64,000 nucleotides of DNA from Candidatus Omnitrophota bacterium (GCA_028707125.1 JAQTUX010000002.1:336355-400354); one strand, 5' to 3'. Counted from the first letter of the stretch, positions 2,831 to 58,100 are shown. Notes: a model not told the origin generated them from the sequence alone. Translations and numbers: made by a program.

Positions 2831-2834
2831 TGGG

Positions 2835-3713: not shown

Positions 3714-3714
3714 T

Positions 3715-5223: not shown

Positions 5224-5247
5224 TAACTGCTCCTTTCTTATTGGCGC

Positions 5248-34100: not shown

Positions 34101-37100
34101 AGCCCAAACTGTCCCTTACCCGCCTCTGCGCTTCCTGAATGTCACCTATTACCTTATCAGTTGATAGCGGCAGGCCGCTCCTGTGCGACGAACTGCTGGA
34201 TGATCGCGGATGATCCATTTTGTCCGGCCTGCCGGCCCTGCCATAAAATATCTCCCGTAAATAACTCCGGATCTTTTCCCTGGCTATATCGCAAACAATA
34301 TGGTCGATTTCGTGCCTTCGTTCTTTATGCCTGCCGAAATTTCTGCCGAATTCCTCCGCCGTAAACCGCTCAAAATAATTAGTGAGGTACGGTTCGATCA
34401 GCCCTAAATCCCGTATAACCCTTCTGTTATAATTACCGGCGATCCACTGATAATCATGCTCTGGAGTGATCGCCCCTTCATCAAAGATCTGGTCAACATC
34501 AAACCCCTTTACCCTCCTCAGGGGGTCAATGCCCTCCGCGCCTCCCGTCACCGGCACGCCGTAATTCATGATCATAACCCGCTCATCGCCGTCCCAGACC
34601 CCCAGTTCCCACATATTTATCTGAAGCCCTCTAAAATCGCGTATCGCTTCATATGCCCTCTGATACGACGGAAGGCTGTCCCGTTCTTCATTTGATAATT
34701 TATCCGCGCGCCTGCCGTATATCTGAATGGCCTCCGCCGCCCCTTCCGCCATAAGGATCGTAAGATAAGGCCCCAGATAAAGTATTTTTTCCTGAAGTAT
34801 TATTTTGGGCAATACCATGATTTCCCCGTCAGGCAGCGTGAATTTGAAATCTTCTACGGTCAGGGTTGAAGCGAAGAGGCTGTCCAGGCTGCTTTCCTCT
34901 ATCCTTAATCCGGGCTCGACCAGCCCGTTAAAATTATTCTCGTAATCCCGCAGGTATGCCTCTTTGTCAAATTGAGGATCATCAAACGGCACGACGGGTA
35001 GGAGCATCTTTATTACGAAATACAGCCCTTTGTCGGAATAGGCGATCATCAATCTTCCGGTATCACCCCATTGCTGCAATCTTACATTTTTGATCCGCTC
35101 GTATACCGCCTCCACGATCTCCTTTTTAAATCTCCAGCTTAACTGATCAGGGTCCAGCCCATACCCGGCAACATGCCTTCTGAATACACCGGATTCATGC
35201 CTGGTCTCATATAGCCGTATTACACCCTCAATGATATCTTCAATAACGGCCTCTTTATCTCTCTTTATATATTTCTTTATAAGGCGATTTATGCGATAAA
35301 CGCCTTCTAAGAAAACAAAGAATATATTCTTCGCTAAGAAATACGCGGTGTAGGGCGCCATATAGAGGTACGACGGCAGCTCATTAAACAGGCGCGATGC
35401 CCCCTGCATCCGGCTTATGTGTATCGCTTCCGCGGCCAGGATGATCGGCAGCGCTAACCTCTGTATCCAGGATATGAGGAAATTGGACTCAACCACCAGG
35501 CGCTTATTAAGGAACAGGACTCTCCTGTCAGGGTCAACCCTGGCAATCCTAAACCTGCCCCTCCCAAATGAATCCTCATATACTATGTATCTGAATCTTC
35601 TTCCCGCATTAATACTGTGTATTATTGTCAACAAGTCGGAATCCTTTGCCATGCCGATCTCCTGTTCAATAAATGAGCATAGCTTGTAATCTCTCCTGTT
35701 TTTTACGTCTGTGAAGAAAAGTATGATAAATGACCCTGCTGCCAACGCAAAATAAACAACCGCTCCAAAGGATCCCGCCAACGAAACAAACACGCCTATC
35801 GGTTCAAATACCGCCGGAAGGCCTGTAATGATAAATATCCCTGAAAATGACAGCCCTATGGATATGATTCCCCAGAAAATCAATCCAGGAAAAGATGTAT
35901 TCTGGGCCGCGCTATATAAGGGCATGGGTGCTTCCTGCGCCGGGCCAGAGGCGCTGCCGGCGGAACTGCCCTTACTTCCTGTATCATCAGCCCTCGTAAT
36001 ACAGATGCCATCCTTTGACACTACAATTCGTATCGCCTTATCATGTTTGACTATCTCTAATTTGCCAAGCAGGACAGAGCGCACTGTCTTTGTTGCCTTC
36101 CCGTCAATTATCACAGGTATTAAGTTCTGATTTTGAAACAATCTGCCTCTATTAACGCGCTCCAGGAATTCCGTTATGGTTAAACTCTCTCCGCCCTTGC
36201 CGCTGCCGGCCGGCCCTTGCTTGGCAGCAGATAAAGCAGACAACTGATCCTGCACCGCAGAAATGACCTTGGCTAATCGCCTAACCAGGTCCTGCCTGTT
36301 GTCATCCCAGTGCTTAAGATTCCTGGCTACGGAGGTATAGCTTGAATCTTCGGGGTGCGTGCCTGTATGGGTGAAAAACGCCATCCCGTCTAACTTCTCC
36401 GGATTAGACAAGGTATCCAAAATTATCCAAAGCAACGCCCTGTCCTTCTCATTCTTAAGCCTGCATAAAGAGCATATCTCCTCAAAACTAAAACGCGTCC
36501 TGCCTCCTTCGATCTTATTGCATATCAACGTCAATATCGCCGCCGCCATAAACTCCTGGTCTGACGGCTCGCCGCCCGGCGGCTGGTTGAGCGGGCTGCT
36601 GCTTTCAGAGGCGCCCTTTCGCCTCTTAATGGTTACCTGCCTGCCTATCACCTGCCTGCCTTGCAAGGTCTGGCGCGCGATAACTTTAGAGGAATACCTC
36701 CATAATGTCCCGATTTTTTCTCTATCTATCGCGGAGATCTCGATTTCCGGCTCCACTTTAAGGTCATATTTGGTAATACTATCAACTATCTTTTCGTAAA
36801 GCAGGTCAAATACGCGGATTTCCGCTATCTTACCATCGCTGCCGCGCCTGATATATAAATATACCGGCGCTCCGGACTCTAATTTATTCCCATAAATAAA
36901 TGCCCTCCTGAGAAGCGTCTTGAGCTCAAAAAATACATCCTGCCCAATGTCGCCTTCTAACCTGGCGGAAAGCTCTCTTGCAAGACGCAGGATAAATTCA
37001 AAGCTGCCCGAAGGATTTCGCCGCCCGAGTAAGATCTTAATCGCGCTGCCGTCAATAATGCCCTGATACAGAATAGATGGATTATCTCCCGTCTTTATTA

Positions 37101-40100
37101 AGTCATCCCCTGATACCTTCTTGACTGCCGCCTCTAATAACTTGACTCGCTGAGTAATATCGGTCAAGGCGGGCGCCTTTCTCCTGAAAACCAGTATGAT
37201 CCCGCCTGCCAGGATAAGCACCGATACGACGTAACGCGCATATCTGTTCCAATCAATCTCTTCTGCCACGGGAGCAATGCTCTTAATAAATCTGTTCTTT
37301 ACCTCAATATTTTCCGCCGCGGACGGAAGGGCTTTTCTGATCTCCTCTCTCAGTCCTTCAATTACCCGGCCCTCGTCCTGGCCGTGCCGCGCCTTTAGCC
37401 CTGCGATCATGCCCCTGATATCCAACTCCCTGAAGGCCAGCCCTGCCTCGGCTATGACAGCGGGATCCTGATAGTCGCCTAACCAGACCAACAGACCGAT
37501 ATCCCAGTGTGGACTACGTTTGTCTATGTCCGCGATCATAAGCCCTGCGCCCCGAGATAAGGGGTAGCCCCCAATACCCAAAGCATCTTCCTTTTCCCAG
37601 TCAATTTTATCTCCGTATTGAATAAGGGTGTATTTACCTGCTTCTTCATTAAGCGGTTTGGCGGCGCATACCAGGACCAGCGGATTCGAAGGCGCCCCCC
37701 TGTCAATCACCCTGCGGTAGCGGGCTCCGCCGCCGACTTTAGGAGATGTCTCCATATACTCCTCTCCCCTGTGTTCACGGGGATTCGCATCCACAAGCTC
37801 AAACTTGTAATAGTCGTAATCTGTCCGGGCATCTTTGAAAGCGGCGACTGTCTGCGCCCAATTGATATGCCCCTGATAAGACCTCATGGCAAAGGTCGCC
37901 ACGACAAGGATTATCGCGACGGCCACCAGTAGTTCGATCAAACTAAAGCCGGCATCCTTACTGCTGTATGATGGAAATTTGGCTTTGAAATGCTGACTGA
38001 TCAAATAAAAGAACAGGCCTGCTGCGGCTAAAACATATGGTTCCCCACCAGCCACGGAGAGGTAAACCAGTGCCGCAGCAAGCCCTGTAATTATAAATCC
38101 TGTAAGTGCTTTCGTTTTTACCGCAAATAAAAACCCTGCGGAGCGGGATGCCTTTTTGCCGGCAGCGCCTGAGGAAGCTGCGCCGTAGCCGCGTCCATCT
38201 GTTTGACCACCGGCGGCCCTGAGACGCGTGAAAATACGGCTCAGAATATCCGCCTGCTTTGCCTCATGAAGCTCGAAGAAATAAGGATGGAGATAGACGA
38301 AGCACAGGCCGGTCTCATCAATGGTGAATGCGGCAACCGGGTTGTCGCCATCCGCAACAGCTGTCGCGGGAAAGCTCGCCGTTACTACAAAAAACAGCGA
38401 GTCCATGAGGTCGGTTACAAGGCTTATCTTATTGATCTCGTAAACCCGCGACTGCAGGGTATCATATCTGCCTTTATCAAAGCCGTCCGGGATGCTGTCC
38501 GGAGTCAGAATGCATCCTCCCGGCATTATCTCCGACCATTCAGGCCCATAGTCACACTTTGCCCGCGCCGCCGCCTCCTCGGGTACACGGGAAACAACGC
38601 CGTTTCCGATCCCGAACAACCCGGCTGACCCGGACAAGATGCCGTTGATACTATGCTCATCTATACATTTGCCCCGCTCCCTGAGTTGATCGGCAATCTG
38701 CCTGATCGTGATTCTGTCGTTAAGGCGCTTAATCGCCCAGGCCAATTCCCAGTCAATATCCGGTTTAACCCTATTCCAGAAATCCCGCCCATGTACAGCG
38801 CTGATCCTCTGCTCGTAAAACCAGTTCATGGCGTTGCCCGCCGCCAATACCGGGAACCTGTCTGCGGATATGCGCATATTTCCGTATTGGTGTGAATAGA
38901 ATCCCCTCTGACGGCTGCCCGATGCCTGCCAGGAATCGCATGGCGTAAGGCCAATACTGCCGAATAATTCCCTGAACTGCCTGTCGATCTCCTTTTCTTT
39001 CTCAACCGGCATATATTCCTGTTCCTCGCTACTCAACGTATAGTACGCGCGCAATTCCCTTATCGGAGGTAATCCGGCCAACGCGGCGATCTGCATAGCC
39101 CTGAGATATATCCTGACCGCCAGCTCCTTTCCGATCCTCATCCCCTTGGCATGGACACGGAAGAAACAGCCGTGTATGTGAACCGCGCCTCCTGCAATAT
39201 CGATAGTTCCGGCATGGCCCAAATACACCCCGTTCCAGAACAACTCCACAAAAACCGATATCCTATCCACCTCGTAACTCTTTATCTTCCAGAGTTCAAC
39301 TATGTTATGGCTGTAAGGAGCCGTTATTGCCGGGAAATCCTCACTATTCCTGCAACGAAATCCCTGGGTCTCCAAAACGGTTGTATATTGGTCAAACCGC
39401 TCTTTCCGCCAGGCAGGGTGTGTTGGTTTAGCGCCATTGCCGTTACCTGCGGGAGAACTGGCCGAATCCAAAGAGGCCTCCTCCTCTGCCGCCTTCGCCC
39501 TCCTGAAGCCGAGGAAAAGGGCGGGGGCATAGATGGCAAAACCCAGCCATGTCGCCGCTGCGGTGGGATACCAGGGAAGATAGAGTATGTTATGGGCGAA
39601 GGCGGCAATAAAACACGGCCCGGCCCAGGGGCGCATCCTGGACACCCCGGGGCAATGCCTGTTTTTTTCCATGACGAAGAACATCAGTATGGAGAACGGC
39701 GGCTGGGTAAGGCCTACCAGGATAATACGCAGGGATTCAAATTCTGGCCCGGGGAAATACCAGAACAACCATCCCAGGAAAGGCGCGAATATCAGGAAAG
39801 AGATGATAGCTACGGCGCGCATAGTGGCAAGGTCGTCGCGGCGTAGAAGCCGCCTTTCCATAGAGGCATAGTAGAAGAACGTGATAAACAAAGAGATCGC
39901 GGCCGTTGACATCTGGTCGGCAATGCCGCGGATCTTTTCATCAAGAGGGCTCCATAGTGTATAGCTCCACGGCCAAAGCCAGCTGAAAACACAGGCGGCC
40001 AGGGCAAGCATCGCCAGGATCTTGCGGAGGTTATACGGCTCTGATAAATCCCCTGCCCTCCTGCGCTCAAGATACTGCCCCAGGAAGGCCCCAACAGGTA

Positions 40101-43100
40101 TGAACATGCTCAAGCTCAGGAAGCCGCGCAATGTGGTGCTGCTGGGTATCGCGGTTATAAACCACAGGTTCAGGCAGGGATTGGGCAGGCATTGAATAAC
40201 GGAGAACGTGAGAACGATAAAGGCGGAAACTACTGCTATGAAACTATATGTCAGGACTGGCCGCGGCTGGCGAAGGAATCTCTCTCCTGCAATAACTAGG
40301 GCAGCTCCTGCAGTAAACCAAGGTATGGAAAGTAATACGGCATGGAAGACGAATGTCCCGCAAAGGAGCGAAACCGCCGTTTTTACGATCAGGTAGAAAC
40401 CGATAATAATAGGTAAAGAGGCGATGAGCAATATTGTTTTGGCAGGGCCGGACGAAGAATGGATACTAACAGACGAAGATGCGGCTGGCGGCCCGGTCGC
40501 GGGAAAGGAAGCAAAATAACCCCCCATAAGCGGTAATGCCGAATGCCTGGAACCAGTCAAGCCCATAAATAAAGGGCCTGCTGCGGCTAAAACATATGGT
40601 TCCCCACCAGCCACGGAGAGGTAAACCAGCGCCGCAGCAAGCCCTGTAATTATAAATCCTGTAAGCGCTTTCGTTTTTACCGCAAATAAAAACCCTGCGG
40701 AGGAAGATGCGCCTTTACCGGCCGGCGCAATTTGTGTGAACACATGGCGCAGTGCCCCTATCTGTTTCTCCGCGGGAAGTTCAAAGAAAGAAGGGTTCAG
40801 ATAGATAAAAGATGCCTCACCGGCTGGATCAATGGTATAGGCGACCTCGGGGCTACCCGCCTGTTTAATGGCTATTTCCGGAAACTCTGCCGCAACTACA
40901 AAAAATACCGATTCCAGAACCGCCCTTAACTTCCTGCCTTCCTCTCTGTTGATATTGTTAATGGCTAAAACCAACTCCTGTAAAGTATCGTAATGCCTTG
41001 GATTGAAGCCGTCAGGGACAATAGCTGTCAATAGTGCGCCTCCAGGCAGGGCCGGACTGGAGGAGAACCCTTCCATATTTATCTTTCTTGCCACGATAAG
41101 GTACGGCCGGCTCCCCTCATGCGCCTCATACCGCCTCCTCCATTCTGTAGCAGGATAATCCAGAGGGAACGCATCCTTCCAATATATCCTGTAAGGATAC
41201 CCTTTATACTCAAGCCAGTCCGTGAAGAACTGCGCGGGAATGCCTCCAGGGAACGACCAGGAGTCGTTATGAGAAAAGAGAAAGTACCCACCCGGCTTAA
41301 CCAGTTCGTCATAATCATTGAGGTGTTTTCTCCTGTCATTGAACAGCTCTCCCCCTTCACCTGCCGCAATATCGCAGAATGACTCGCTTAATATATCTAC
41401 GGTTCCGCTCTTGGGGTATGTTTCGTCATCACGCCGGGTTATTACTTCTAATCCGGCCCAGGAAACGGGGTTGGTGCCCCAAGTAGGACTAGGCAATTCA
41501 AAACCGAGGCGGCGCGCCGCGGGAAATGTGTTTTTGAGCCCGCGTAATAAATCTCCGTTGCCTGTGCCTACGTCAAATATAAGCCCGCCAAAAACAGCAT
41601 CGCCCATTGTCTGCTGAAGCGTGATCTTGAACATGGCGGAATGATCATCAAGTTCGTATCTGCCCTTCGGCATAATATACCAGTTGACCGCCAGGTGAGG
41701 CAGGAATGCCGCCAACGAGAACAATACCACGAACAACATCCCGGAAGGGTTAAAGTAATTTAAGGCGGCCAATAATATCGCGCTGGATATACTGATCGCT
41801 ATCTTGTCATCCGTAAATGCCTTGTTCCAATTGCCTTGCATAAGATCAATACGGCTCAAATGATTGAGATGCCACATCGGCAGGACAAACAGCAGCAGCC
41901 AACCCCACACCATAGGGCCGAAACACAAAGAACAACCCATCCAATGGTATATAGGATAACTCACCCCCAAAGTGCAACCCGCGACCCAGCCGACTGATTC
42001 TACAAACGCGGGGGCAAAGACAAACCCCCAGAAGCGGCCGAAATAGCGCTTTGCCCAGTAGTAAACCGGCAGCATCACCGGCCACATGCCGCCCTTCAAC
42101 CTAAAGCTGGCCTTCTTTTGCTCCGGAGAGGAACTTTTGGCGGATGAAATATTTCTCTCTTCTTTAGAAATAATATAAGCTTTGGAAGAATGTTCTTTCC
42201 CAAAGAAATCTACAGAACTGACATCGCAACCGGTTTTTGTCCTGAATAACATTTCAATCTCTTCCGAGCCTGCCGCTATATTAATAATTACGGCTTTCCC
42301 GCCCGGGGCAATATGAGGCGCTATTTCATCCGCGACCCTATTTAATAATCTGCCGCCATAATCAAACACGCTCCTCTCTGAATGAGCCACCGCCTCTGGC
42401 TCGGTTTCATGTGACAACTGCGGCGCATTAAAGATAATCAGACCATACTCACCTAAGCCGTTAAATAAGTCATTGACAAAAGCCTCAACCTGAAGGCCAT
42501 TACCCCTCAAGGAACAGGTCAGTAACGTATTTTGTACCGCCATTTCTAATAAATCTACAGCCGTAACCAGAGCGCCTTTAGTGGCGGCTATAAGCGCCTC
42601 TAAACCTTTCCCTGTCCCGACAATTAAAACTCTCATTCCCGGCTTTGCGTATTTATCAGCGGCTTTTGCGCTCATAACACTTGAGCAATGCATACCATGA
42701 AAAACTCCGGGCAATATTGGAATGGCGGATAATTCTGTTATTCTGATTTCTCTAAAATCGGAAAAATAACCCACAACGTCTGTGCTATGCGCTAAAATAT
42801 CTGCAAATTCTCCGTTGCTAAAAAGAGCGTAGACATGGCGGGTATTATTCAGAAAATAAAACTCTTCTTCCGGGGCCAAAAGAAATCCTATCGCTTCTCT
42901 TAAAGCTTCAGCCATAGCCATATCCAGCGAACTGCAATATGCCAAGAAATGAATGGTTGCTATGTCTTTATTACCCCGATGTAAACATAGCAATATGGGC
43001 ATATTTTTATAGCGTATCACCCTCATTGTGCCTGTAAGCGCGGTCTTCTCCGTAAGTTCAAAGGCAGTCAATATTGCGTGTTGATCTAATCCGGACAGGG

Positions 43101-46100
43101 GCAGATCCGCGGACTCAAATATTCCGCCACGCGCTGGCTGCCACTCTAATTCTTCCTCACGAATACCCAGCGTCACAAAAACGCTCCTGGCAATCGCCAT
43201 CTCCTCTTCGCTTACAGGAAAACCCGCGTCCAATAAAGCTTTTGATTCAGGCGTCAATAGTGCCGAAGAAAAAGCCGCCGCCGGACTTGAGCCATTTTCC
43301 CTGTGTATCGCCTTTGTTTTAACCAGGATGTCAAAAATCTTCTGCCCTAGTTTTTCGGGAAACTCCCCTTTTGTCTTATAGGGCTGATTATTTCTTATCG
43401 CCGCGTCGCGCCATACACTATAAATCTCGCTGAGCGGTTTGCTTTCACCTCTAAACCTTACCGTGCGGCAAGACCTTATCAGGAAACCATCAAGGTCTCT
43501 CCGGAATTCCTCTTCGGTTTCAGCCAGCTGCCCTATGCCTTTATCTTTAAGCATCTTATAAACCGCGGAATAAACCATGCCGTCCATATCGGCTCTTTCC
43601 GCGTCAAATACCATGGTTGAGATGCCCGCCTGGATCTTAACCGCACAGGCGGGGACTGCTTTAGCAAGGTATTTTACCTCATCCTCTCCTATGGCATAAC
43701 GCCCCTGTCTTTTCCTGAAAGCTGCCTTGACGATTTTCGTGCGGCTGATCCCATGCTGGATATTCTTTAAGGTCACGGGAAACTTACCGCATATAAGCTG
43801 GGCTATCGACTTGAGCGCCTCATTTCTGTCCGTATATACGAAGGCATGGCCTTTATAATAATCTTCTACTATCTGCCGGACAACCTGCGGGGCTATTTCG
43901 CCGGCAAAACTGCGCAGCTCTTTCAAGTACTGCGCGTAACAGTGGGCGATTATTAAAAGTATGGAACCACCTATGACAATAAATATTAATAGGCCGGTTA
44001 ATATAAGCACCACCCTGGTTACGGGATCATCCATCCCTGCGGCCCTCGCGTACCCGCCCGATACTCTGTCCGCTGCCATGACAAGGCCCGCGGGAAGCCG
44101 CGACAATAACTCATCAACCGGGCTGGAGCTTCCCGTTCTCTCTCTTGCGTCAGACATGATGTCTTTAATGACGGCATAAAGGTTATCGGGCCTGAAAGGC
44201 GCCTCTACCAGATCATCTATATCATATTCGCATACCTCATCCGGCAGCGTTGGGCCGTCTGCGCTTCGCTTCCTGTTAAGGAACAGCCTGATCGCATCAG
44301 CCCCATCCAGTGAAACGCTGGTAGTTTTCTCTTCGCCGTTGTCTATAATAGACATATTGACAACATATTGGATCCCGGGCCTATGCGACTTGGCCAGCCT
44401 TGCAATAATGATCTCATAAAGCCTGTTGGGGGTTTGGAATGTTCCAAGCGCCTGCCTCTTTAACCCTCTCTCAGCGCCATCATCAATAAGCAGCTCCGCT
44501 CTTATCATCGGCGGAGCATCCTGTTGAGCGGCTTGCGCATGCCGGCTGGAGATAAAATACATCCTCTTTCTCATTCTGGCGGACTCTATCCTTGAGGATA
44601 ACGCCCTCACGATATAACTCAGCGCGAAAGACCCTATTGCCAAACCTCCGATCACGATCAGCCCCTCCGCCAGGAAGTCCCCGGGCATACCGGACAAGAC
44701 GATATCTACCGCGTCCCCTGCCGCGCTGCTTGAGGAGGCGCCGGCCTGACGCGCCAGCCGCTCTGCCTCGATGCGCTCGATCTGGCTTCCCATGATCCGT
44801 ATGAGCCCCTTTGCCTGCTCTTCAATATTGCCCTGGGTCATGCCCATGCGGGTCGGGGCGCCGTTCTGCTGAGAATTGGTTATGCTCGTCGGGCCGGCCT
44901 CCTTGCCTTTCTTGGACAGGCCGCTTGAGGAAGAACCCTTAGGATACGGCTGTTTGTCAACAAGGTTAATGTACCCGGCGTTGTCCAACAATGGAAATAT
45001 ATTTTCTTTAAGGATCTTAGCGGCCAAGGCGCTGCTAAAACTATAATCTTCCAAAGAGGCGCCGCTGTTCTGATTAACCCAAAAACAGAAGGAGCCTACG
45101 GCCTTATCTCCGAGGTAGAACGTAAAAGACGCCGTCCTGTCTTTTTCATTATCGCCGGTCCCGGTCTTGCCGCCCACAATCTGTATGTTATCCCGGATAA
45201 ACTGCGCGTTTCTGCCCGTGCCTCTGTCAACCGCCGAACGCAGGCAGTTTTCCAGCAAGAGGCATATTTCTTCATTCAACACCCTGCGCTTTGTGCCCCT
45301 TCCGTCCTTCTGGAGCGCAACTTCAAAAGGCGTGCCTTCCGCAAATCTCAGGCCATCTATCCTTATTGTATCGCATAGCCATCCCTTACTTTTAATCACC
45401 GACATCAGCTTGGCTAACGAGGCGTTGTTATCTCCGGATGTCCCCAGCGTAGTACTTAAATGGGGGTTTAATTCAAAACTTCCGGCGTAACCTAATTCGC
45501 GCCACCGGCGGTTAATGACCTCAAATGCCGCCTTCTCTAATCCGTAGAACTTCCTTGCTTCATTTTCGCCGATTATCCTGGCTATCTCAACGTCACGGAT
45601 ATCTTCTAGTACGCGCACAAAAACAAGATTTATAGACTGGACAAACGCCTCTTCAATGCTCATCTGTGCAGGTAAGCCGGGGTGATTATTCTTAGGGGCG
45701 TATTCGCTTCTGCCGGTATAGAATGAAGTTTCTATTGTAGGGTATTCTCTCCTTAAAGACTCTCTTAAGACTTCAGCCAGAGAAGCCGTTGGGTTTTCTT
45801 CCATAAAGGCGCCAATCCAGTTTAAGAGAGACGTTCCGGTGTCCCTCTGGTTTTTGTTGCCGTAGATATTATTTGCGGCATATAATCCTTCCAGGTTACC
45901 TATGTATTCTTTAATTTTAGCGTCATCGCTTTGCCATAAATTATACAGCCCCTCCACCAGCCTCAAGTAATCCGTAATCACCCGTAGCTTGGAAGTAGAG
46001 CCCATAATCATTCTTCCCATATAATTATCCCGCAGGCTGCTTGTATTAACATCAACTATAACCTGGTCAAAATTATCCTCCCTCTCAAGAATAAATAGGC

Positions 46101-49100
46101 CGCATTCCACATTAGAGGCATGGGCAGTGGTGGAAAAATAATTCCCATAATTATTCTGCTGTATACCTCTGAACAACGCCCTTATTTTGGCCTCCAAGGC
46201 TACATCATAAGTTACCTGCACAGAAACATTCATAGAATTTATCTCTTCAGGCGTTGCGCTAAGGCCTGCCCATGATGCCAAGGCATCCCGCGTTTCAATC
46301 TCTCTCTGCGTCAAGTGGTAAAAATAGCTGTTGTCGCCATTGAAACTGATTAAGCCCGACAGGCCTATCCTTGAAGCGGCATCCGCCAGCTCCCCGCTAA
46401 TCAGTCCGTCTTCTTCCATACGCATAATAACGCTGTTGGCTTTATTATTCAGCGGTTCTTCAAATATTGATGCCTTCCCCGCTGCTTTTGCCCGGGCTAA
46501 ACTCCTTAGCTTGGACGGGTTGTTTATTGAAGCGCTTATAATCGCGGCTGCCTTCAGCGCCCTTGCTTTCATGGTTAGATCCTGATGTTTACCCTCCGGA
46601 AGTGTTAAATCGCGCTTCAAGGCAACCTTGTTCATGGCACAATATGTATAGAGCGCGTTTATCAGACCCCTGTTTCTTTCATCGCCAAAATATAGCGAAT
46701 TGGCGTAATGCAGGAATAAATCGCGGCGTGCGTCAATGGTATCCAGGCCGTTTTTATAAATAAACAGCCATGACCCCGCGTATTGCCTTAATTTATCAAA
46801 GGGGCCAAATGTCTTTTCTCCGCTTGAAAACTGAATTTTGTAATACTGCACCGGAATGGTGCTTGCCCCGAAACTCCCCTGCCCGGAAAGATACCAGATA
46901 GCCGCCTTAACAATACGCGGGTCTATTACTCCTGAATAATATGCGGTCTCCTGAAGCCAATACCTGTGATTTTCGGCATAGCTTACCGTATCCACAAGAA
47001 GCGGCGGTATCTCGTCAAAGGAGTTATAAATCAGATAGTCCGGCTGTAGGACTTTTCTGTTGCTCTCCCTGCCGGTCCGCTCATAAATGGTCAAGCCGCG
47101 CATAGAGAATTCCCCCTCTACAATGTATGCGCTATTTTTCCGGGGCATATCTATCTTGCGGTCAAAGGGAGGCGTTATCCCGCACTCAATAAGCGCCCTT
47201 GTAAGGGCGCCTTGATTAACCTGCTGCGATATCTTAAAATCATCGGCTTCCAGAGCTCGCATAAATATCGGTATATAGGGATAGCCCCTCTTTTTTAACT
47301 GCGATGAGCCTTCCGAGGCATCGGTCATGGTCTTGTAGAGAGCGGTCCGTCCATCCTTTAGCTCCCAGTTAATATGCCTGTTAGCCGTGCCGAAAATAAA
47401 TGCCTGAACAGGGCTATAGTAAAACTCCGAAGCGGACAGGCCTGTGAATAGAATTAAAATTATGCCTGACCGACGCAGTAAATACCAGCCGGGAAATGAA
47501 ACGGGTTTACCGGAATACCTAAGTATGAAGTAATAAAGCAGGGCCAGGCAGGCATTAACGACCAATATGCATAAAACGGTACTCGCGGAGACCGCGGTTA
47601 TCATAATAGCGATATCTTTATAACTAAGGTACGCTATATTGTCCTTCAAAAGTAGATACAAACCGTAGAATACAAATAAACTCGCTGCCGTTTCCAAAAT
47701 CAAGACGAATTTACTTCTCTTGGCTATCGTGGGGACGGTTTTTCTATCCGGGCTGCGCGCCAGCAATTCCTTCCATTTGGCAAAATCCTCTTCTGCGGCC
47801 TTGGGGTCTCCTGCTAATTCGTGGATCTTCCCGAGGTTCAGATAAACATCAGGGTCATCTGGGGCAAGCTTTGCTATGGCCTGGTTATAGGCGTTAATCG
47901 CCTCCTGGAATTCTTCCATATAGTAATAGGCATTACCCAGGGATTTATACACCGAGGCGAAAGGAGCATTCAGTGAGATTGCCTTCAGGTAATGCTCTAC
48001 TGCTTTTTGATATTCTCCCGAGCCAAAATATATTAAACCGGCATTATTGTGGTAATCGGGGTTATCCGGCAGTATATTTAATGCCTTTTCAATATCCTCT
48101 GCGGCTTTCCTGAAATTGCCTAATAGGCTGTAAATATAGGCCCTGTTGTTATAGGCGTCAGCATAATCGGGATTGGCCTTTATTGCCATAGCATAGTATC
48201 TTTTTGCCTTGCGGTACCTCCCCTTCTCCAGGCAGGTATCGGCATATTCTTTATATTGCTCCTGTAATTCGCTGTCGGCTGTAAAATGCCATTTCCACCA
48301 GTATGAGACCATTTTTTTCAAAGCGAAAAACAAAGCTGAGAATTTAGTCGCCGCGAAATGATAAATACCAATAAGGATATGCCCTGTAATTAGCGCTGCT
48401 GCCTGTAGGAGGCCGGGAAGGGAAGATATAAACGCCCCACCCTTTGCGACTCTGTCTTTTGTTCGTTTGAACCATTTGTAACCAGACCTTAGAAGTTTTA
48501 TCAGGTAAGGTAATACCATTAATGCTGCTATTATGCCTATTGCATAGTGTAGGGGCTTTGATGTAGTGATGAAGGTGTAGGTACTCCTGAAGAAGCTGTC
48601 TGCGCCCTCTTTTAACCTGTCCACCTTTTCCTGGATGATCTCTGCCAAGGGCACAGGGGTCTGCGTAGCAGTGGGGGCAGTGGTAGGCGTCAGGGTCGGG
48701 GTGGCTGTAGGTTCGGGGGTTGAGGTAGGCTTAGGGGTATTAGTTGCCGTTGGCTCTGGGGTGTAGGTTGAAGTAGATGTTGGCTTTGGTGTAGATGTGG
48801 CGGTCGACTGTGGAGTTGTAGTCGGCTCTGGAGTTGAAGTATCAGAGGGTTGGAGGGTAGATGTTGATGTTGGCTTTAGCGTAGAGGTAGGCACTGCTGT
48901 AGGAGTATGCGTTGCCTGTGGTGTAGACGTTGATGTAGGATGCGATGTAGGCGTATGAGTTGGGGTCGCGGCAGGAGTAACAGTGGTAACTTCTCTATTT
49001 CTAATCTTACCTAAGGCATATGCTGCTGCATTGCGGACATCCCAGTCTCCATCTTTTAATGCCTCTATGAGGACAGGGATAGCAGAAGGGTCGCCGATGT

Positions 49101-52100
49101 CACCTAAGGCATATGCTGCTGCATTGCGGACATCCCAGTCTCCATCTTTTAATGCCTCTATGAGGGCAGGGACGGCAGAGGGGTCGGCGATATTACATAA
49201 GGCATATGCTGCTGCAAAGCGGACACCCGGGCCCTCATCTTTTAATGCCTCTATGAGGGCAGGGACGGCAGAGGGGTCGCCGATTACACCTAAGGCCTCT
49301 GCTGCTTTATGGCGGACAGCCCAGTCTTCATCTTTTAATGCCTCTATTTTTAATGCCTCTATGAGGGCAGGGATAGCAGAGGGGTCGCCGATGTCACCTA
49401 AGGCCTCTGCTACTTTATGGCGGACAGCCCAGTCTTCATCTTTTAATGCCTCTGTAAGGGCAGGGATAGCAGAGGGGTCGCCGATGTCACCTAAGGCATA
49501 TGCTGCTTCGTAGCGGATATGCCGGTCTTCATCTTTTAATGCCTCTGTAAGGGCAGGGATAGCAGAGGGGTCGCCGATTACACCTAAGGCCTCTGCTACT
49601 TTATGGCGGACAGCCCAGTCTTCATCTTTTAATGCCTCTATGAGGGCAGGGACGGCAGGTTTGCCTATCTTAACCAATTGTGCTATGACTTCATCCGAGT
49701 CAGAAGAATTCCCTAAATTCCTCATCAATCTCCTTATCTTCTCCTCACTCACAGCAGTAGTCTCAGCCGTTACAGCTGTAATTGTAGTTAAGGAATGGGT
49801 ATTGATGGGTTGGGCAGATGTGATTGTAGATGTGGAAATTAGCAGGGTTACAGTAATTAGCAGGATAATCAGCGCCTTTTTGGCCAATTTCATCAGAGGC
49901 GGCCCATGTGTCTTAACTGCCCTCCAGGCAAGGTAGGCAAAGAGTACGCCTGCCGCCAAGATAAGTGTTTCCGCAGGATGGCTGACTATGAGCCCAAGTA
50001 TGGCTGCTGTGCTCACCGGCTCAAAGCTGCGCAGCTTGAAGTCGCCCTTGGGGAAGTGGGGCTTATGCTTCTTAGCGAACAGCTTTGCGACTCTGTCTTT
50101 TGTTCGTTTGAACCATTTGTAACCAGACCTTAGAAGTTTTATCAGGTAAGGTAATACCATTAATGCTGCTATTATGCCTATTGCATAGTGTAGGGGCTTT
50201 GATGTAGTGATGAAGGTGTAGGTACTCCTGAAGAAGCTGTCTGCGCCCTCTTTTAACCTGTCCACCTTTTCCTGGATGATCTCTGATAGAGGCACAGGCG
50301 TTGCTGTCGGTGTTGGTGTATTGACGGCTGTCGGGATAGCGACAGGGGTATTTGTCGGAGCCGGCTCAGGAGTGGAGGTTGCTGTCGGCTCAAGGGTGGG
50401 GGTATCGGTCGGCTCAGCGGTCGGGCTTGGTTTGAGGGTATTAGTTGGGGTTGGCTCAAGCGTTGCTGTCGGCTCAGGTACGAGCGTCAAAGTAGGCGCA
50501 TGAGTGGGGGTATCGGTCGGCTCAGCGGTCGGGCTTGGTTTGAAGGTATTAGTTGAGGTCGGTGTCGCTGTGAATGTCGGCTCAGGGACAGGGGTAAAAG
50601 TAGGCGTATGAGTGGGGGTGGGGATACTAGTTGGCGTCGCCGTAGAGGTCGGCGTGTGAGTGGGCGTAAAAGTAGGCGTATGAGTAGGCGTGGGCTGCGG
50701 CGTTGGGGTTATAATTTGAGTTTGAACAGAAGGCTCGTTTTGAATCTTCTTTATAGCTTCAGCGGCTGCGTCTCTAACGGACTCATCTTCATCATTCAGA
50801 AGTTCGTTAAGCACATTAAGCGCCCCTGAATCTCCGATCCTACCTAATGCATTGGCTGCGGAGCGACGGACACCCTCCTCTTTATCATTTCGTGCTGCTC
50901 CAATAAGGGCAGAAATGGCTCGTTTATCACCTACTACACCTAGAATATCTGCTGCATCTGCGCGGACAAAGGCGTCTTCCATTTCTCTAATAAAGTCGGC
51001 AAACAGACTTTTATGCTGTCTCAATATCCTGATAAGAGAGGGGACAGATCGCCTGTCCTTTATTTCCATCAATGCTTCAGACGCAGCTGAACGAAGCGTC
51101 CAGCCGCCTTCTTTTAATGCATTAATAAGTGGCTCTACTGCCTGCGCATCTTTAATTCTACCTAAGATCTTTGCTGCGTGTGAACGAATACTAAAAGACT
51201 GTTTTTTATCTCGTAATACTTTAATAAGATAGGGAACGGCCGGCTTACCAATGCTGACCAACTGTTCTCCGACCACTCCATACACACTATACTCAAGTCT
51301 CAATCTGCTTATTAGATTCTCTATTTCTTCCTCGCTGACATTGGCCGGCTGAAATGCTGTAAGTGGATCGGCTGCTTTCATTGCATCGGCGATTGCTTCG
51401 GGATATTTGCGGAGATTCTCGTAGGCAATGCCTCGGTTTCTATAGAAATCGGGTACTTTTGGGTTAATCTCTATGGCCTTAGTGTAATCAGCGATTGCTT
51501 CGGGGTATTTACGGAGTTTTATGTATATATATCCTCTATGGCTGTAGTAATCCGCGTCATTGGGCTCCAGCTTAATGGCTTCATTACAGGCCTCCAATGC
51601 CTTCTGGTAATCCTCTTGCTCACGGTATTGCGCGGCCTCACGGAAGTAGTCATTGGCTGACTTCTGCTGTTGGGAGATGATCGTTTGTTGCGATATAAAC
51701 GCGGGCATATTGCCGTATTGGGCGGGTGTGGATGCGGGTGTGGATGCCAGCAGGGTCATGATGATCAACAGGTTGATCAGCGCCTTCCTGGCGTATTGTA
51801 CTATCGGCGGGCCCCATGCCTTTATCGCCCTCCAGGCGAGGTAGGCAAAGAGTACGCCTGCCACAAAGATAAGTGTTTCTACAGGATGGCTGACTATGAG
51901 CCCAAGTATGGCTGCTGTGCTCACCGACTCAAAGCTGCGCAGCTTGAAGTCGCCCTTGGTGAAGCGGGACTTAGGAATGAGGCCTGCCGGGGATGCGGCC
52001 GCTTGTTCTGATGTCTTTTCTCCGCAGTATCTGCCCATCAGGCGCAGCAGGCCCTTTGCCTGCTCTTCAATATTGCCCTGGGTCATGCCCATGCGAAGAG

Positions 52101-55100
52101 CGTTATAAGCGGCCAGGCCGTAATTATCCGGGTGGCTCCTGCCGTAATAGTCATCGCAGGCGTCTTTGACCGCGCGCATAAACGACTCCCAGTTCGGCCA
52201 TATCTCGTTATCGCCCCAAGGCGTATTCTCATAATCAACCACGTATCCGGTGCCTCTTAATATCCTCTTTAACCCATCCCGCGCCATAGCCCTCAGGCGC
52301 TCAAACAGCACCCCGTCCAAGACCGCGATGGTCGGGGCGCCGTTCTGCTGAGAATTGGTTATGCTCGTCGGGCCGGCCTCTTTGCCTTTCTTTGAGATCA
52401 TCATGCCGAAATTGGCCCCCTGCTGAATGATCCAGGACGTCACCACATTGTGATCGTCAATGAAGAAAAGGTGGTAGCGCATGCGCGGGTCTATCGCGAG
52501 CAGCTGCTCGAACTTACGCTGCAGATTATAGCCCCACTCGTCGAACCTCCTGCCGCCGATAAGAAATACCGCCCCCCATTCTACTATAAGGTCCCTGTTG
52601 GCCGCGTCAAACATCCGGTCAAGGAACCAATCAAGGCATTTATACGGGACCATCCTGCGTACAGCCGCGATAAATGCCATATCGTAAATCCTGACGCCAA
52701 GGGCCCTGAGTTCCTCCTTTGTTATAAAGACCTTTCCGAACGCGCCGTCAAACAACTGGTCGATCAGGTATTCCTTCTGCTCCTGCTTTATCCGCAGTAA
52801 CTCCTTGATAAATTTATCCTTGTCTTCGGGCTTATGGTCCAGCGCCTCCAACAAAGCATCGGGTATGGCTACCTTAAGCCGTTTCATGTTGTTCTTAACC
52901 AGCTCCTGTATGCCTTCGCCCTGCCAGCGAGTTATGTCCGAGCCCTCGCTGTTGCCGAAGAGGTCGTCCTCAACCACCTTGCCGCTGAATTCAGCGAATA
53001 TCTCGTTGCGCAGGATCTCCGTATGGAGGGAAGAACACCCTGTGATAAAATCGCTCACCCTGCCGGTGATCCTCACCAAGTCTATGTATCCTGTTTTGTC
53101 GTGCCCTTTGGCCTTGACCATGGTATCCCTGAATTCTTCGGCTATCTTTAACACATCGAACATGTAGTCATTATAATTACGCATGCCGTCAAGGACGATG
53201 GTGTGATTGTAGTGATGCACGACTATATTGCTGAAGAACGGGTCTGTGTTATAGCCGTCGTTGACAACGCGGGGTATGGCCAGCGTAGTATTGGTTTCGC
53301 TGGTTGAGAAAATAATCCTCTTGCCTACAGGCGTTACCTTAGCGGTATCTATTTCAACCAGCGGACCGAAAGCGGTAAATCCAAGCGGCCTCCAGGACAC
53401 ATAATCTTTATCGCTCTCCGGCTCCCCTTTCCTTCCTGATTGTTCCTTGATGAAACGGAGCAGGACCCTGCGATATAACAATGTCTGCAGGGCGCGCATA
53501 TCATCGTCATCGGGATAGGCCTCTTCAAACACCTCCGGGCAATACATCCAGTATTCGTTCAGCTCGGATTCCGGATTGCAATACACCTCAACATCCACGC
53601 TGTTTTTACCGTTATAAGGCCTGGGCAATTCGATGCCGCCATATCTGGTTATCAACCTGAGACCGCCCCTTACGACCTCAATAAGCTGCGGGTCCACGAT
53701 ATCCTCTTTGAACCCCTTGATCTTTTTGGAGTAGAATATGCCCATAACGTTCAACTGTTTGCGCGCCGCGAACGGCCCGCCGTTATAACGCGAGAGCACC
53801 CTGTACCAGCCCCTTACCAGGTCGGGCTTGAAGCTGCCCAGCCCTCCGGACATAATAAGCTTGGCGATTATGCCCGCGCAACGCAGCGCCTTGCGCATAA
53901 ATCCCCTGGTGTGCTTTAATGTTATAATTAACGCCCGCAGAAACTTTATTGAAAACTCATATTCCATCTGCAGCACCCAGATATCGCTGTCTCCGATATT
54001 CTTTATCGCGTTCTGTAACTCATAATCCTTGAATGCCCTTGACCAGGCCGTATCAACAGCGTACCCCTTCATTTCATCCTGCCTGGCCTGGCCGCGGATA
54101 AGCAGGGAAACCCGGTGCTTTAATTCGGGATCATCCTCAAGTATCCTGATGAGTTTCCGGGCCCCTCGCAGGTTCGACTTGGCCTTGCCATAAACTTCAT
54201 TTAATCTCTCCAGCGTAAGCGCGAATCTACCCGCGCCCTCTTGCGGCAAGGTAAATATCTTTCCGGGTTGGCGCCCGGATGCCTCCGCGGAAGATGAAAC
54301 ATGATCCTCATCAAACAAAAGGCCTGTTGCGGCTGAAATAAATGGTTCCCCACCAGCCACGGAGAGGTTAACCACTGCCGCAACAGGCCATGAAGTTACA
54401 TATAGCCCGGCTGATCCAAACGATGATACCGGGCTGAAACCAAACCGCTGACCGGTTATTGACTCTATCGCGCTCTTAAACATCCGGAAGCTGCTCATCC
54501 CCGTGCCATCAATCCTGTCATTGATGACGAAGCGGTCAATCTTATCTGGATTATTCAGATATGCGTCCATGGCCGCGATGTTTTCTACCATCCGTATGGC
54601 AGCATTATCCTTGCCGGAGGTCATTTTACGAAGTATGCCGATATGCCGCACTCTTTCTTCCCGCCAATGTTTTAACGAGAACGGCAACATCAGTATGCTG
54701 GCTATATCCGCTATCTCTCTCTCCAGCATATTGAGCGTTTCAAGTGTCGTAGTATCAAATAACAACCGCTTTCCGCTGTTCTGCTGCCCAGCGAAGGCCT
54801 CTTTCTCCGCGGCATACTGCCTGCCGTGCCTTTCCCTGACCAGCATCAGTGCCCCGGATTGTTTTAAGGCATCAAATTCTTCCGCGCTGACCAGATGTTT
54901 ATGAGTGTCTCCGGACTTCTCATCTTGATGCGCCTGGCGGGTAGATATCTGGATGACCATGGCGAAATTATCGGGATGCGCTGCTATCAACCTGCGGCAG
55001 AAGGCCGTCTTTCCTACTCCCGAAGGCCCGATCACGGCTATTACCTTAGATGCGGCGGCGGATGAAGAGGCGCTGTTGTTCATCTCTACTTCTTCGCCTA

Positions 55101-58100
55101 TATAGTGAAGGCCGTATTTAATCTCTTCTTCGCTTAATTGGCTAAGGGGCCTGCTCAGCCCATATCTGCTATCGCCTTCTTTGCCGGAGCAAACTATATG
55201 CAGATCACAATAAAGCTTTTGTTGCTGGACGGAATATTCCAAGAACTGCATCCGGACATAAACACCATCTTTGCTATATCCCTTCCTTTCCATCACCCCT
55301 AACGCCTGTCCAAGATCAAGGCCGGTCTTACCTCTGATAACCCGTATCAGCACTCCTTTAAAATCGCCTGCCAATCCTTCAAGGGTCAAATCCTCTTTCC
55401 TGCCCTGGCCGGCCTGGAAAATGGCCTTAAGCAGAGGATGCGCGATCAAGGCGGCGTGGTTAAGATTCTCTAAAAACTCTGTCAAATCTACAAATATGCC
55501 TTTATTTCTATCAAATACGAATATTTTATTTATCCATTCCCGGGGCACATCCTGCCTGGTCTCAAATACGAGATTATCCATGCCGTTCCATTCGGGGTTA
55601 TTATTAATATTAACCTGCGCCACAACGGACAAGAAATCATCCTTGGGGTACTTGTGGAACTCACACGGCCAGAAAGCATAGTTGATCGCTTCAGCCGGCG
55701 AGACGTCAAACTCCATCAGCCATCTGGTGGCCTTCCAGATCTCAAGTCCATTAGCCGCGATCTCTTTCAGGTCACCAAGATGAAGACGCAGCCCCCTATA
55801 GGTAAATCTTTCCGGGTTATATTCCATACCGGATTTCTCAGCGATCTCACCACCGCGGTAATCACGCGGCACGCCCTTTTCATCAGCAAAGAAATAAGGC
55901 GCAAACAGCGTGTCCGGCTCGGAAGACACCCTCTCTTCAACCGATGGCGCACGGATCGCCTGAACGCTTCCTGCGGCACGGTAGGCGTTGTTTCTTTCCT
56001 TAGTATTCCACCTTCGGAATTGGACGATATAAATACCATTTTTTACCGCGAACTCTAAATTAATGGGGTATTTCAAACGGCTATACATAGCAGCCGCGAT
56101 ATGTATCAAACCGCGGACATCCTTTTCCGCGAGAGAAACGTCTGATCCGTTGATCCCAGTTCTGTCGGCTTCAAAAAAGTCCAATATATTATTAAAGAAA
56201 GAGTATTCCCAGCAATCCGCGTCCCTGTCTTCCTGCGTGCCGCCGGCCAGCCCCCTGGCGGCATTAATAAATACATTGCGGGAATCAACCAGTATAACGC
56301 CGGACGCTTCCGGGTCTATCTGGGCTTGCAAGGCGATCGCCATAGGATACTTATTCGTAGCGTCCACCGCGAAGTTGCTTGCGATGACTCCCAGCACCGC
56401 CTGAACCAGCCCATCAAAGTTTGATATGTTTGGAATGCTCCTGTAGGTTCCCGGCTGAGTGCCTGATATGTCTTCAACTTGATTTGAAGAACGCGCGATT
56501 GTAACATTACTGAAAAACTCCGCGTACTCTAACCACAAAGGCCTTAGGCGCTCCGCGACTAATTTTACTATCCTGTCTTGATACAGTAATCGTTCAATTG
56601 CCCTATACCTTTCTTCGTTACTTTCATTCTCTATGATTATTGACCCGATCTCATCGCCAAGGACCGCCATAATATCTTCATAAAGCCGGGTGGTAACAGC
56701 TATGGTGGGGACTAAGAAGAAATCCCAGAATATCCTGCGATGAAAATCATCTAATGCCGCCAGGGTGCTGGTCTTGCCTCCGATCAACTCCGGAAGCCAT
56801 ATCCCGCCTGCGAAGAAATCGATCCAGTATTGATGAGAGTTTTCTTCTTTTACGTTTTTCTGTTGCCTGTCAGATTCAGCTGCCAGATCCTTAAAGATGC
56901 CTCTTAGCTCCCGGTCATCCCTGCAAAGATGGAGCTTGATACAGTAGTCCATCTCCATCAACAAACCCCTCGCGGCAAGAAAATCATACGCGCCCCAGGT
57001 CTTCTTCGCCAATTTCATCCTGGCATCCTTAAGGACATCGTTTAATACCCTGTCCAACGCGCTGTTTCTCCCGTCGTTATATATATTGAATTTATCGATT
57101 ATTTCCCTGTCCGGATCCTGCCCCATTAACCCCGCTAAAGCGCCATATAACGAAAACTGCCTCTTAACCTCGCCATTGTGATGGAGCAGCTCCGGAAAAT
57201 TATTGATCCTGCTAAGAGCGTCTATATTCCTGTCCAGTAAATCGGTTAAATCCCTCGCCAGATCATAGAACACCGGCGCCAACAAAAATTCCAGGTCTTT
57301 TACCTTCTTGCCTTTAAGGCCGGCAAAAATAGCAAAAACCTCGGTATCATCGCCTTCTCGCAGGGCTTTATATAGCGAAAGGAATTTATCCCCTTGATTT
57401 GAAACCAGATATACCTCGCCCTTGTCTCCGTCTATCATGACCTTGTCTCGGCTATCCAACACAAAGGACCTCTTCTGAGGACATGCCTTTAACAGATAAG
57501 GGCGCCAGTTCACGGGCACATAAGAATATGTTAAGCTGTCAATCCTTGCGATCCGGCCGCTCGCGTCGGCAATAAATGGATTCGGGGACTCCTTACTGTT
57601 CAACACTTCTACGCGCGGTATCCCCAATACCCCCAGGGAAAGATTGATATGGCTGGCGATATTACCCCGGGTTTCTATTTGAATAATGCCCTTTACTCGA
57701 TCGCGATGTCTGGTTATCCAGGACAGCATCTTCTCATCAACATCATGGACCAATAAGACCACATCGCCCTTTTTGCCGAATTCCTTTACTGCGGGCCTGT
57801 CGTTCCCCGGGAGGATCTGCACCAATCTGCCGCTGGCAAAGCCGTCTGTAAGGCCCCAGCCCTGCAGTATGCGATGTATAGACACGGGTAACTCCGCCGG
57901 CCTTGTCTTTCGCGCTTCCCTAATGTCAATATCGCTCTGGGATGCCTTGTCCGGCCAGATATCTTTAACATGATGCCCTGCCTCGATTATCCTTTGTTTC
58001 AGATCAGAGGCGCTTACTGCCGAACTGCTTAAAGAAACCCCCAGTTCATATCTGTCCCTCAAGCGATTATAGAACCCTATTATCCTATACGGCTCGTCAA

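Follow-up and report, generated by a model that had tools for sequence, protein, structure and literature searches.

What is a unit that resembles a wall-building enzyme doing in the middle of a giant protein, and whose wall would it touch? The question arises from a stretch of 64,000 nucleotides of a Candidatus Omnitrophota bacterium (GCA_028707125.1, JAQTUX010000002.1:336355-400354), here called the window, with all positions counted from its first letter. Within this 64-kb window an uninterrupted minus-strand open reading frame (ORF; 7,117-63,987, a frame of 56.9 kb) encodes 18,956 amino acids (aa). Mid-protein in this giant mosaic ORF sits a unit like a class A penicillin-binding protein (PBP). 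The initial annotation, made without database searches, had placed the unit at 45,000-47,750, which proved essentially right (44,602-47,706 once a closing helix absent from that annotation is included), and had offered two meanings for it: remodeling of the producer's own wall around a huge trans-envelope structure, or action on the wall of another cell. The answer that we favor, with moderate confidence, is a periplasmic, double-anchored, peptidoglycan-engaging cassette, drawn from a family of free-standing proteins with an E...K..Q signature, its acyl-transferase site intact and its glycosyltransferase site non-canonical and probably weak, which would couple the giant protein to its own sacculus or cross-link or trim the wall locally.

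Is the unit really a class A PBP relative? The module proper occupies window 44,968-47,706 on the minus strand (residues 5,428-6,340), and its features, all on the minus strand, are as follows.

7117..63987, minus strand: giant ORF holding the PBP-like module (ORF call, Pfam); its 5' end is possibly beyond the window
47638..47706, minus strand: predicted transmembrane (TM) helix 1, aa 5428-5450 (hydropathy, charge counts; helical in the structure model), preceded by a segment rich in Lys and Arg
47512..47604, minus strand: predicted TM helix 2, aa 5462-5492 (hydropathy, charge counts; a single long helix in the structure model)
47383..47454, minus strand: predicted TM helix 3, aa 5512-5535 (alignment A1, charge counts)
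47029..47382, minus strand: conserved pre-GT51 region, aa 5536-5653 (alignments; 4/5 family-invariant positions kept)
46480..47028, minus strand: GT51-type glycosyltransferase domain, aa 5654-5836 (PF00912, 163-sequence alignment, hhalign, codons)
46111..46479, minus strand: interdomain linker, aa 5837-5959 (alignments; within the Foldseek alignment to class A PBPs)
44968..46110, minus strand: transpeptidase (acyl-serine transferase) domain, aa 5960-6340 (PF00905, TIGR02074, motifs)
44677..44967, minus strand: Ser/Gly/Gln-rich linker, aa 6341-6437 (model confidence below 50)
44602..44676, minus strand: predicted TM helix 4, which closes the loop, aa 6438-6462 (hydropathy, charge counts; an equivalent helix is found in the related proteins P0013 and P0091, described below)

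The motifs quoted in the initial annotation all lie in the giant-ORF frame and in canonical order (AENHRY at aa 5671, GASTI at 5707, YANSLYFG at 5761, STSK at 5997, SIN at 6118, and KTGT at 6274), and the "multi-helix hydrophobic anchor" that it saw ahead of GT51 corresponds to three helices. Profile searches with aa 5400-6500 as query gave a Pfam PF00912 (Transgly) match above threshold (36.6 bits, gathering score 27, E=3.8e-9, aa 5654-5836). PF00905 (Transpeptidase) fell marginally below its threshold in the window copy (20.2 bits versus a gathering score of 22.1, E=3.9e-4); the embedded relatives P0013 and P0091 exceed it, with 30.9 and 29.5 bits. The NCBIfam model TIGR02074 (PBP1A family) covers both domains at 71 bits (E=7.8e-20), far below its trusted cutoff of 508.75. 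The observation as a whole lies well outside what chance would produce.

Structure agrees. An AlphaFold2 (AF2) model, computed from 10 aligned sequences, has a mean predicted local distance difference test (pLDDT) score of 63, with domain cores at 70-90, and a predicted template modeling (pTM) score of 0.57. Its best Foldseek matches in the PDB are bifunctional class A PBPs, led by S. aureus PBP2 (3dwk, 2olu, 2olv; E~1e-13, ~770 aligned columns) and followed by 5hlb and 3udi (E. coli PBP1b and A. baumannii PBP1a); these matches span both domains, with a TM-score of ~0.5 normalized to the target. Anchor, GT51, linker, and transpeptidase follow one another in the module in the same order as in these enzymes. 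In sequence the module is divergent, because phmmer with the module as single query matched no chain among the PDB sequences; a profile of its family reaches canonical PBPs only, PBP1b included. The pre-GT51 region aligns at the position of the UB2H region of E. coli PBP1b.

Which catalytic residues are left? We aligned (MAFFT, 163 sequences) the window module, E. coli PBP1b (from K-12 mrcB), and 161 family proteins, and verified the catalytic codons of the module individually. The correspondences below give the PBP1b residue, its window equivalent, and the state of the family; window positions are on the minus strand.

E233: window E5672 (46972-46974); family E in 148/148
D234: window N5673; family N in 102, D in 40
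Q271 and K274: window Q5714 and K5717; family Q invariant, K in 150/151 (one R)
K287: window K5732; family K in 152/152
E290: window Q5735 (46783-46785, codon CAA); family Q in 151/152
N312: window N5763; family N in 142/152
S510/K513 (SxxK): window S5997/K6000 (45988-45999); family 159/159
S572/N574 (SxN): window S6118/N6120 (45628-45636); family 161/161
K698-T-G (KTG): window K6274-T-G (residues 6274-6276; 45160-45168); family 161/161

The module thus shares with class A PBPs the equivalents of E233, Q271, K274, K287, N312, S510/K513, S572/N574, and K698-T-G. GT51 motifs 2 (GxSTxxQQ..K, here GASTIPVQYYK) and 4 (YxN, here HYANSLYFG) are present, and across the family the equivalents of their G, S, T, Q, K, and N vary little or not at all. 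It differs from PBP1b, with which it shares ~22% identity, in having Gln for E290 and Asn for D234 and in not conserving the H240 region. The second catalytic Glu of GT51, which belongs to motif 3 (RKxxE), is therefore missing from the window, where Q5735 stands in its place. A single family member among 152 has Glu at this position.

Because motif 3 is the critical point, its register deserves care. HMMER and a small MAFFT alignment had suggested another, shifted by two residues, in which R286 lies opposite Arg and E290 opposite Ser or Gly. We rejected it on the strength of the 163-sequence alignment and of hhalign, which matched 148 family GT regions to a canonical mini-profile in the K287-to-K, E290-to-Q register (probability 99%, E=6e-18). 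Under either register no acidic residue occupies the second-Glu position.

As judged from these alignments, the window has a fully preserved transpeptidase site and a GT51 site altered at two places only, the second Glu and the Asp beside the first. The Gln at the E290 position is a fixed, selected trait of the entire family and not a lesion specific to the giant protein. In GT51 enzymes the first Glu acts as general base and the second aids departure of the donor pyrophosphate. The module was initially called a peptidoglycan polymerase, a name that calls for caution, since throughout the family another residue stands in for one of the two GT51 catalytic Glu, and that Q5735 and N5673 together make insecure. 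It had also been proposed that replaced catalytic residues would indicate a degenerate, binding-only fold. Replacements are indeed found, at the second Glu and at D234, while the first Glu, SxxK, SxN, and KTG are conserved in window and homologs alike; the fold has clearly not decayed, since 158 free-standing proteins define 77 positions of ≥95% conservation and the window still has 61 of these (GT51 17/23, transpeptidase 40/45).

Where does such a module come from? A word-indexed protein search returned nine free-standing proteins of ~1,000 aa with both PF00912 and PF00905, at 25-34% identity (these form alignment A1). Run exhaustively against 1.84e9 representative proteins, phmmer then gave 504 matches at E≤1e-3, 110 of them at E≤1e-30. 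Almost all of these have 900-1,100 aa and align in two or three stretches, because the family carries a ~170-aa insertion in its transpeptidase domain that has no counterpart in the window. The nearest relatives of the module are thus free-standing proteins of ~1,000 aa (25-35% identity, E down to 1e-50). Those in our alignment (P0001-P0161) have a conserved pre-GT region, the insertion, and the invariant E...K..Q GT51 signature. Signature, pre-GT region, and transpeptidase motifs are common to the family and the window module, whereas the free-standing proteins differ in having the insertion and a single N-terminal anchor.

A genome scan with one genome per species, of which we took the best 80 loci (L001-L080), places the family in at least 80 loci of cultured Shewanella, Pseudomonas/Stutzerimonas, Rheinheimera, Halomonas, Aeromonas, and Azospirillum, many Acidobacteriota, and other metagenome-assembled genomes, a wide spread over Proteobacteria and Acidobacteriota. 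All 80 loci hold free-standing members; none is an embedded copy and none comes from an Omnitrophota genome. Across 73 loci there is no conserved neighbor gene and hence no hint of an operon, as the best neighbor cluster occurs in just 9 of them. No NCBIfam model is specific to the family (members score 32-47 bits against TIGR02074), and sequence-based searches found no closely matching PDB entry. As far as could be established, this class-A-PBP-like family is uncharacterized.

Is the window copy alone in being embedded? The two best matches of the exhaustive search, P0012 and P0013, are of the embedded type, and both align in a single stretch, which means that both lack the ~170-aa insertion, as does the window domain. 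P0012, a fragment of 659 aa, has an ORF that runs off the 5' end of its contig. P0013 (JGI 3300013103; L081 142-17532) has at least 5,796 aa, with the module at residues 1653-2520, and since its ORF is also open at the 5' end, the true protein is larger. P0091 (JGI 3300017613; 2,195 aa), encoded on a 124-kb contig beside rpoB and a ribosomal-protein cluster, is a third embedded copy outside the window; it too lacks the ~170-aa insertion, and it has a large extra insertion in its interdomain linker. The four embedded modules form one clade (99/100 neighbor-joining bootstraps, 624 shared columns). The clade appears nested in the free-standing family, with the root placed on a very distant outgroup, PBP1b, and so not secure. 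They are only 30-37% identical to one another, and all four keep every catalytic motif of the family. In P0013 and P0091, as in the window, hydrophobic helices both precede and follow the module.

Outside the module, P0013 and the window protein share a weak HEAT match only, and HEAT repeats stand upstream of the P0013 module. P0013 also has a VanY D-Ala-D-Ala carboxypeptidase domain (aa 374-496, E=5e-20), which gives one giant protein two domains directed at peptidoglycan peptides. Word-indexed searches with alignments A1 and A2 yielded next to nothing more and did not pick up P0012 or P0013. An automatic scan of metagenome contigs, combined with the pattern AFxxSxNxVFVxxLx[DE]IR[DN], found no further embedded copies, an uninformative result, as it also missed the known P0013 contig.

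On which side of which membrane would the module lie? TM helix 3 aligns with the single N-terminal anchor of the free-standing homologs, which has its N-terminus inside (alignment A1). Positive charge is distributed to match: there are 6 Lys/Arg per 20 aa before TM helix 1, 1 in the short loop between helices 1 and 2, and 3, with no acidic residue, between helices 2 and 3. Around TM helix 4 there are no Lys/Arg and three Asp just before it, and 6 Lys/Arg per 20 aa after it. This distribution fits an in-out-in-out...in path and, with the alignment of helix 3, leads us to predict that the module is a periplasmic loop of ~900 aa with each end fixed in the inner membrane of the producer. In class A PBPs a single N-terminal helix does this work; the module has helices at both ends, inside a protein of 18,956 aa. 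Charge topology and the helices on both sides make it likelier that the module works in the periplasm of its producer than on the wall of another cell.

A periplasmic module would also fix its surroundings. The tetratricopeptide-repeat (TPR) block at aa ~5250-5400, three helices upstream, would be cytoplasmic, and so would the HEAT repeats, which are reached through a further two-helix hairpin (aa 5148-5208). This agrees with a 2026 preprint that places the bulk of such giants on the cytoplasmic face (10.64898/2026.06.07.730766). If so, it runs counter to the "extracellular HEAT" assigned with TMHMM by West-Roberts et al. (10.1101/2023.11.21.568195).

Put together, residues ~5,428-6,462 can be read as a cassette of membrane helices, PBP-like ectodomain, and closing helix that would derive from the free-standing ~1,000-aa family. 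Three helices would take the chain out of the cytoplasm; GT51, transpeptidase (together ~800 aa), and the flexible linker would lie in the periplasm of the producer; and the fourth helix would bring the chain back to the cytoplasm, the presumed site of most enzyme-like and HEAT/TPR parts. Because the complete acyl-serine machinery is kept, the transpeptidase domain would still bind D-Ala-D-Ala stem peptides and probably be acylated by them, as a DD-transpeptidase or a carboxypeptidase. The GT51 domain would bind lipid II or glycan strands and be at best a weak or non-canonical polymerase, since its second Glu is Gln and the Asp beside its first Glu is Asn. A substrate-binding transpeptidase joined to an altered GT51 domain would most likely couple the giant inner-membrane protein to its own sacculus, or cross-link and remodel it locally, and is probably not the main wall synthase of the cell. 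There should be a wall of the producer's own to engage, since peptidoglycan precursor synthesis is reported intact in Omnitrophota genomes (10.64898/2026.06.07.730766).

It is important to remember what weighs against this reading. Its topology was drawn from hydropathy and the positive-inside rule only, and West-Roberts et al. themselves warn that topology predictions for giant proteins are unreliable (10.1101/2023.11.21.568195). The AF2 model is of moderate confidence, given its mean pLDDT and shallow alignment, and PF00905 misses its threshold, if marginally. With the Gln and the first Glu both invariant, the glycosyltransferase could be modified yet still active rather than impaired. Finally, what the analysis shows is homology, fold, the state of the motifs, conservation, and the flanking helices; periplasmic location, substrate, and any binding or catalysis by the window module or another family member are inferred.

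A bolder version of the cassette reading, which we put forward tentatively and regard as rather improbable, extends it to the whole family. The E...K..Q GT51 plus transpeptidase proteins would be no polymerases at all but distinct wall-engaging enzymes, each a binder of glycan strands or lipid II combined with a serine acyl-transferase that docks on stem peptides or attaches to them covalently, and giant membrane proteins would have captured one as a double-anchored periplasmic clamp that links a cytoplasmic megascaffold to the sacculus. To our knowledge PBP ectodomains are extracytoplasmic in every studied case, which makes the module an independent landmark in the disputed topology of giant proteins. 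If the clamp exists, the module would be the first homology-based fixed point for that topology, with the adjacent TPR and HEAT parts cytoplasmic. The large PBP-like family with its invariant GT51 Gln occurs in cultivable Pseudomonas, Shewanella, Halomonas, and others, so that the function of a giant-protein module becomes approachable in tractable organisms.

Could the module instead be a fully active bifunctional synthase that polymerizes lipid II and cross-links it locally, building or thickening the wall around a giant membrane complex? The canonical fold and domain order allow it, the first Glu, GT51 motifs 2 and 4, K287, and all transpeptidase motifs are conserved, and the very invariance of the Gln at E290 points to selection on the site rather than decay. 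We think it unlikely: in PBP1b and in S. aureus PBP2 and MGT, changes at the E290 and D234 positions, both altered in the window, reportedly cut polymerase activity strongly, with Glu-to-Gln at the second Glu said to be severe. E233Q is in use in the literature as a glycosyltransferase-null variant. Pseudomonas, Shewanella, and related genera, moreover, already have canonical PBP1a and PBP1b, beside which the free-standing family would be an accessory paralog.

The second meaning offered by the initial annotation was that the module acts on another cell, which would have it displayed on the outside of a predatory or episymbiotic cell, where it would bind or sabotage the peptidoglycan or lipid II of prey. 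Giant proteins of Omnitrophota have been proposed to serve in prey attachment and prey cell-wall degradation (10.1101/2023.11.21.568195). The genes directly downstream of the giant gene (window 1982-6570, minus strand), for a solute-binding protein (SBP_bac_1/8), an MFS_2 sugar transporter, and two ABC permeases, match the carbohydrate-import neighborhoods described there for such giant genes (10.1101/2023.11.21.568195), and the VanY domain of P0013 would suit the same purpose. The membrane arrangement tells against it. Membrane helices hold the module at both ends, and the charge beyond them is of the cytoplasmic type; this arrangement, shared by P0013 and P0091, would put the module under the wall of its producer, in the periplasm, barring cleavage and export of the protein. 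Pfam finds no peptidase or secretion domain near the module. The described prey of a cultured relative are, moreover, archaea, and we know of no archaea with D-Ala-D-Ala peptidoglycan. We consider action on another cell quite unlikely.

An equally doubtful proposal is that of a sensor, in which acylation or ligand binding would inform the cytoplasmic parts of the protein about wall status, muropeptides, or beta-lactams, in the manner of BlaR1/MecR1 or of PASTA-type systems. An ectodomain tethered at both ends would be mechanically coupled to the cytoplasmic segments on each side, and an intact serine site beside an altered polymerase site would suit such a device. Pfam shows, however, no adjacent signaling output domain (kinase, protease, or GGDEF), with TPR upstream and unannotated sequence downstream. 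Nor is sensing the ancestral role, since the free-standing relatives are held by one anchor and lack any cytoplasmic domain. Decay into a relic, or an artifact of assembly or annotation (an inert captured PBP gene or a chimeric contig), would account for the PF00905 score just under threshold, the 16 of 77 family-conserved positions that are altered or missing, and the single copy in the giant protein, but it is very improbable in view of an uninterrupted 56.9-kb frame, catalytic motifs all kept in four embedded copies of such low mutual identity, the same embedded architecture on independent contigs, and a codon composition like that of the rest of the ORF.

Returning to the cassette reading, how does the window protein compare with the giants already described? 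Like the Archaeovorin-type and multi-enzyme giants of Omnitrophota it exceeds 10,000 aa and has dozens of hydrophobic helices (a hydropathy scan counts ~35-40 separate hydrophobic segments), and it draws on the same vocabulary of HEAT_2, TPR, PPDK_N, and SLOG/lysine-decarboxylase-like domains. A SecA DEAD-like domain is reported in most giant genes, whereas no SecA family appears in the window protein among the Pfam matches listed (E≤0.01, four overlapping chunks; for chunk 2 the best 25 of 28 families). The wall-related domains reported in Omnitrophota giants are the SLT lytic transglycosylase, LysM, and similar domains (10.1101/2023.11.21.568195; 10.64898/2026.06.07.730766). GT51, transpeptidase, or PBP modules go unmentioned in the main texts of both giant-protein preprints and of the Lipocone paper, and in one supplementary file of the 2026 preprint. 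The window protein adds a wall-synthase-type module to the domain catalog of giant proteins, whose wall-related entries reported so far are lytic or binding.

The linker that follows the transpeptidase domain contains the repeated motif RMGMTQGNIEEQAKGLxRxMG (aa 6380-6405), duplicated at aa 3965-3990. In its full 33-aa form (RMGMTQGNIEEQAKGL[LI]R[LI]MG...) the motif occurs twice at 64% identity, in windows 51997-52095 and 44752-44850 on the minus strand (aa 3965-3997 and 6380-6412), each copy ~50 residues upstream of a membrane helix that begins with "GDF". It may be a reusable connector that marks cassette borders.

As for the giant ORF itself, no stop occurs in the four in-frame codons that separate its ATG from the edge of the window (63988-64000), so that the N-terminus may extend past the window and the protein may exceed 18,956 aa. 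No overlapping rival ORF of more than 107 aa exists on either strand at 44,500-47,800, and the giant protein has no second PBP-like module. Recent foreign acquisition of the module was considered and rejected, because its G+C content at third codon positions (0.525) falls inside the range of the whole giant ORF (0.553 +/- 0.056). The 64-kb window contains no Rfam families, no rRNA, and no tRNA.

The Pfam mosaic of the giant protein comprises PFK, PPDK_N, guanylate kinase, carbohydrate phosphorylase, TPR, and HEAT domains and the PBP module, together with pilin-type N-methylation, Pol-beta nucleotidyltransferase, GNAT, URO-D, PRAI, and DprA/SLOG matches. Domains typical of cytoplasmic enzymes share one polypeptide; the positions of seven are given here.

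60751-61293, minus strand: phosphofructokinase
56290-56790, minus strand: PPDK_N
54625-55047, minus strand: guanylate kinase
52753-53094, minus strand: glycogen-phosphorylase-like
25795-26037, minus strand: GNAT
10249-10983, minus strand: uroporphyrinogen decarboxylase
8701-9174, minus strand: DprA/SLOG

The methylation signal of type IV pilins usually sits at the extreme N-terminus of the prepilin. Here a pilin-like methylation motif lies mid-protein (window 37888-37962, minus strand, aa 8676-8700; Pfam N_methyl, E=5e-6, 26.3 bits versus a gathering score of 21.2), accompanied by a hydrophobic helix (LIELLVAVAIILVVATFAM). Two distant, unannotated blocks are duplicated within the protein (aa 6902-7198 / 12748-13044 and 7644-7800 / 8485-8653, 37-51% identity). 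A block of HEAT repeats and TM helices is also duplicated inside the giant ORF (window ~48400-52000, minus strand, aa ~4006-5182, 58-69% identity). The GC skew, negative elsewhere in the giant ORF, is +0.13 at window 48001-52000, a stretch that coincides with the duplicated TPR/HEAT/TM region.

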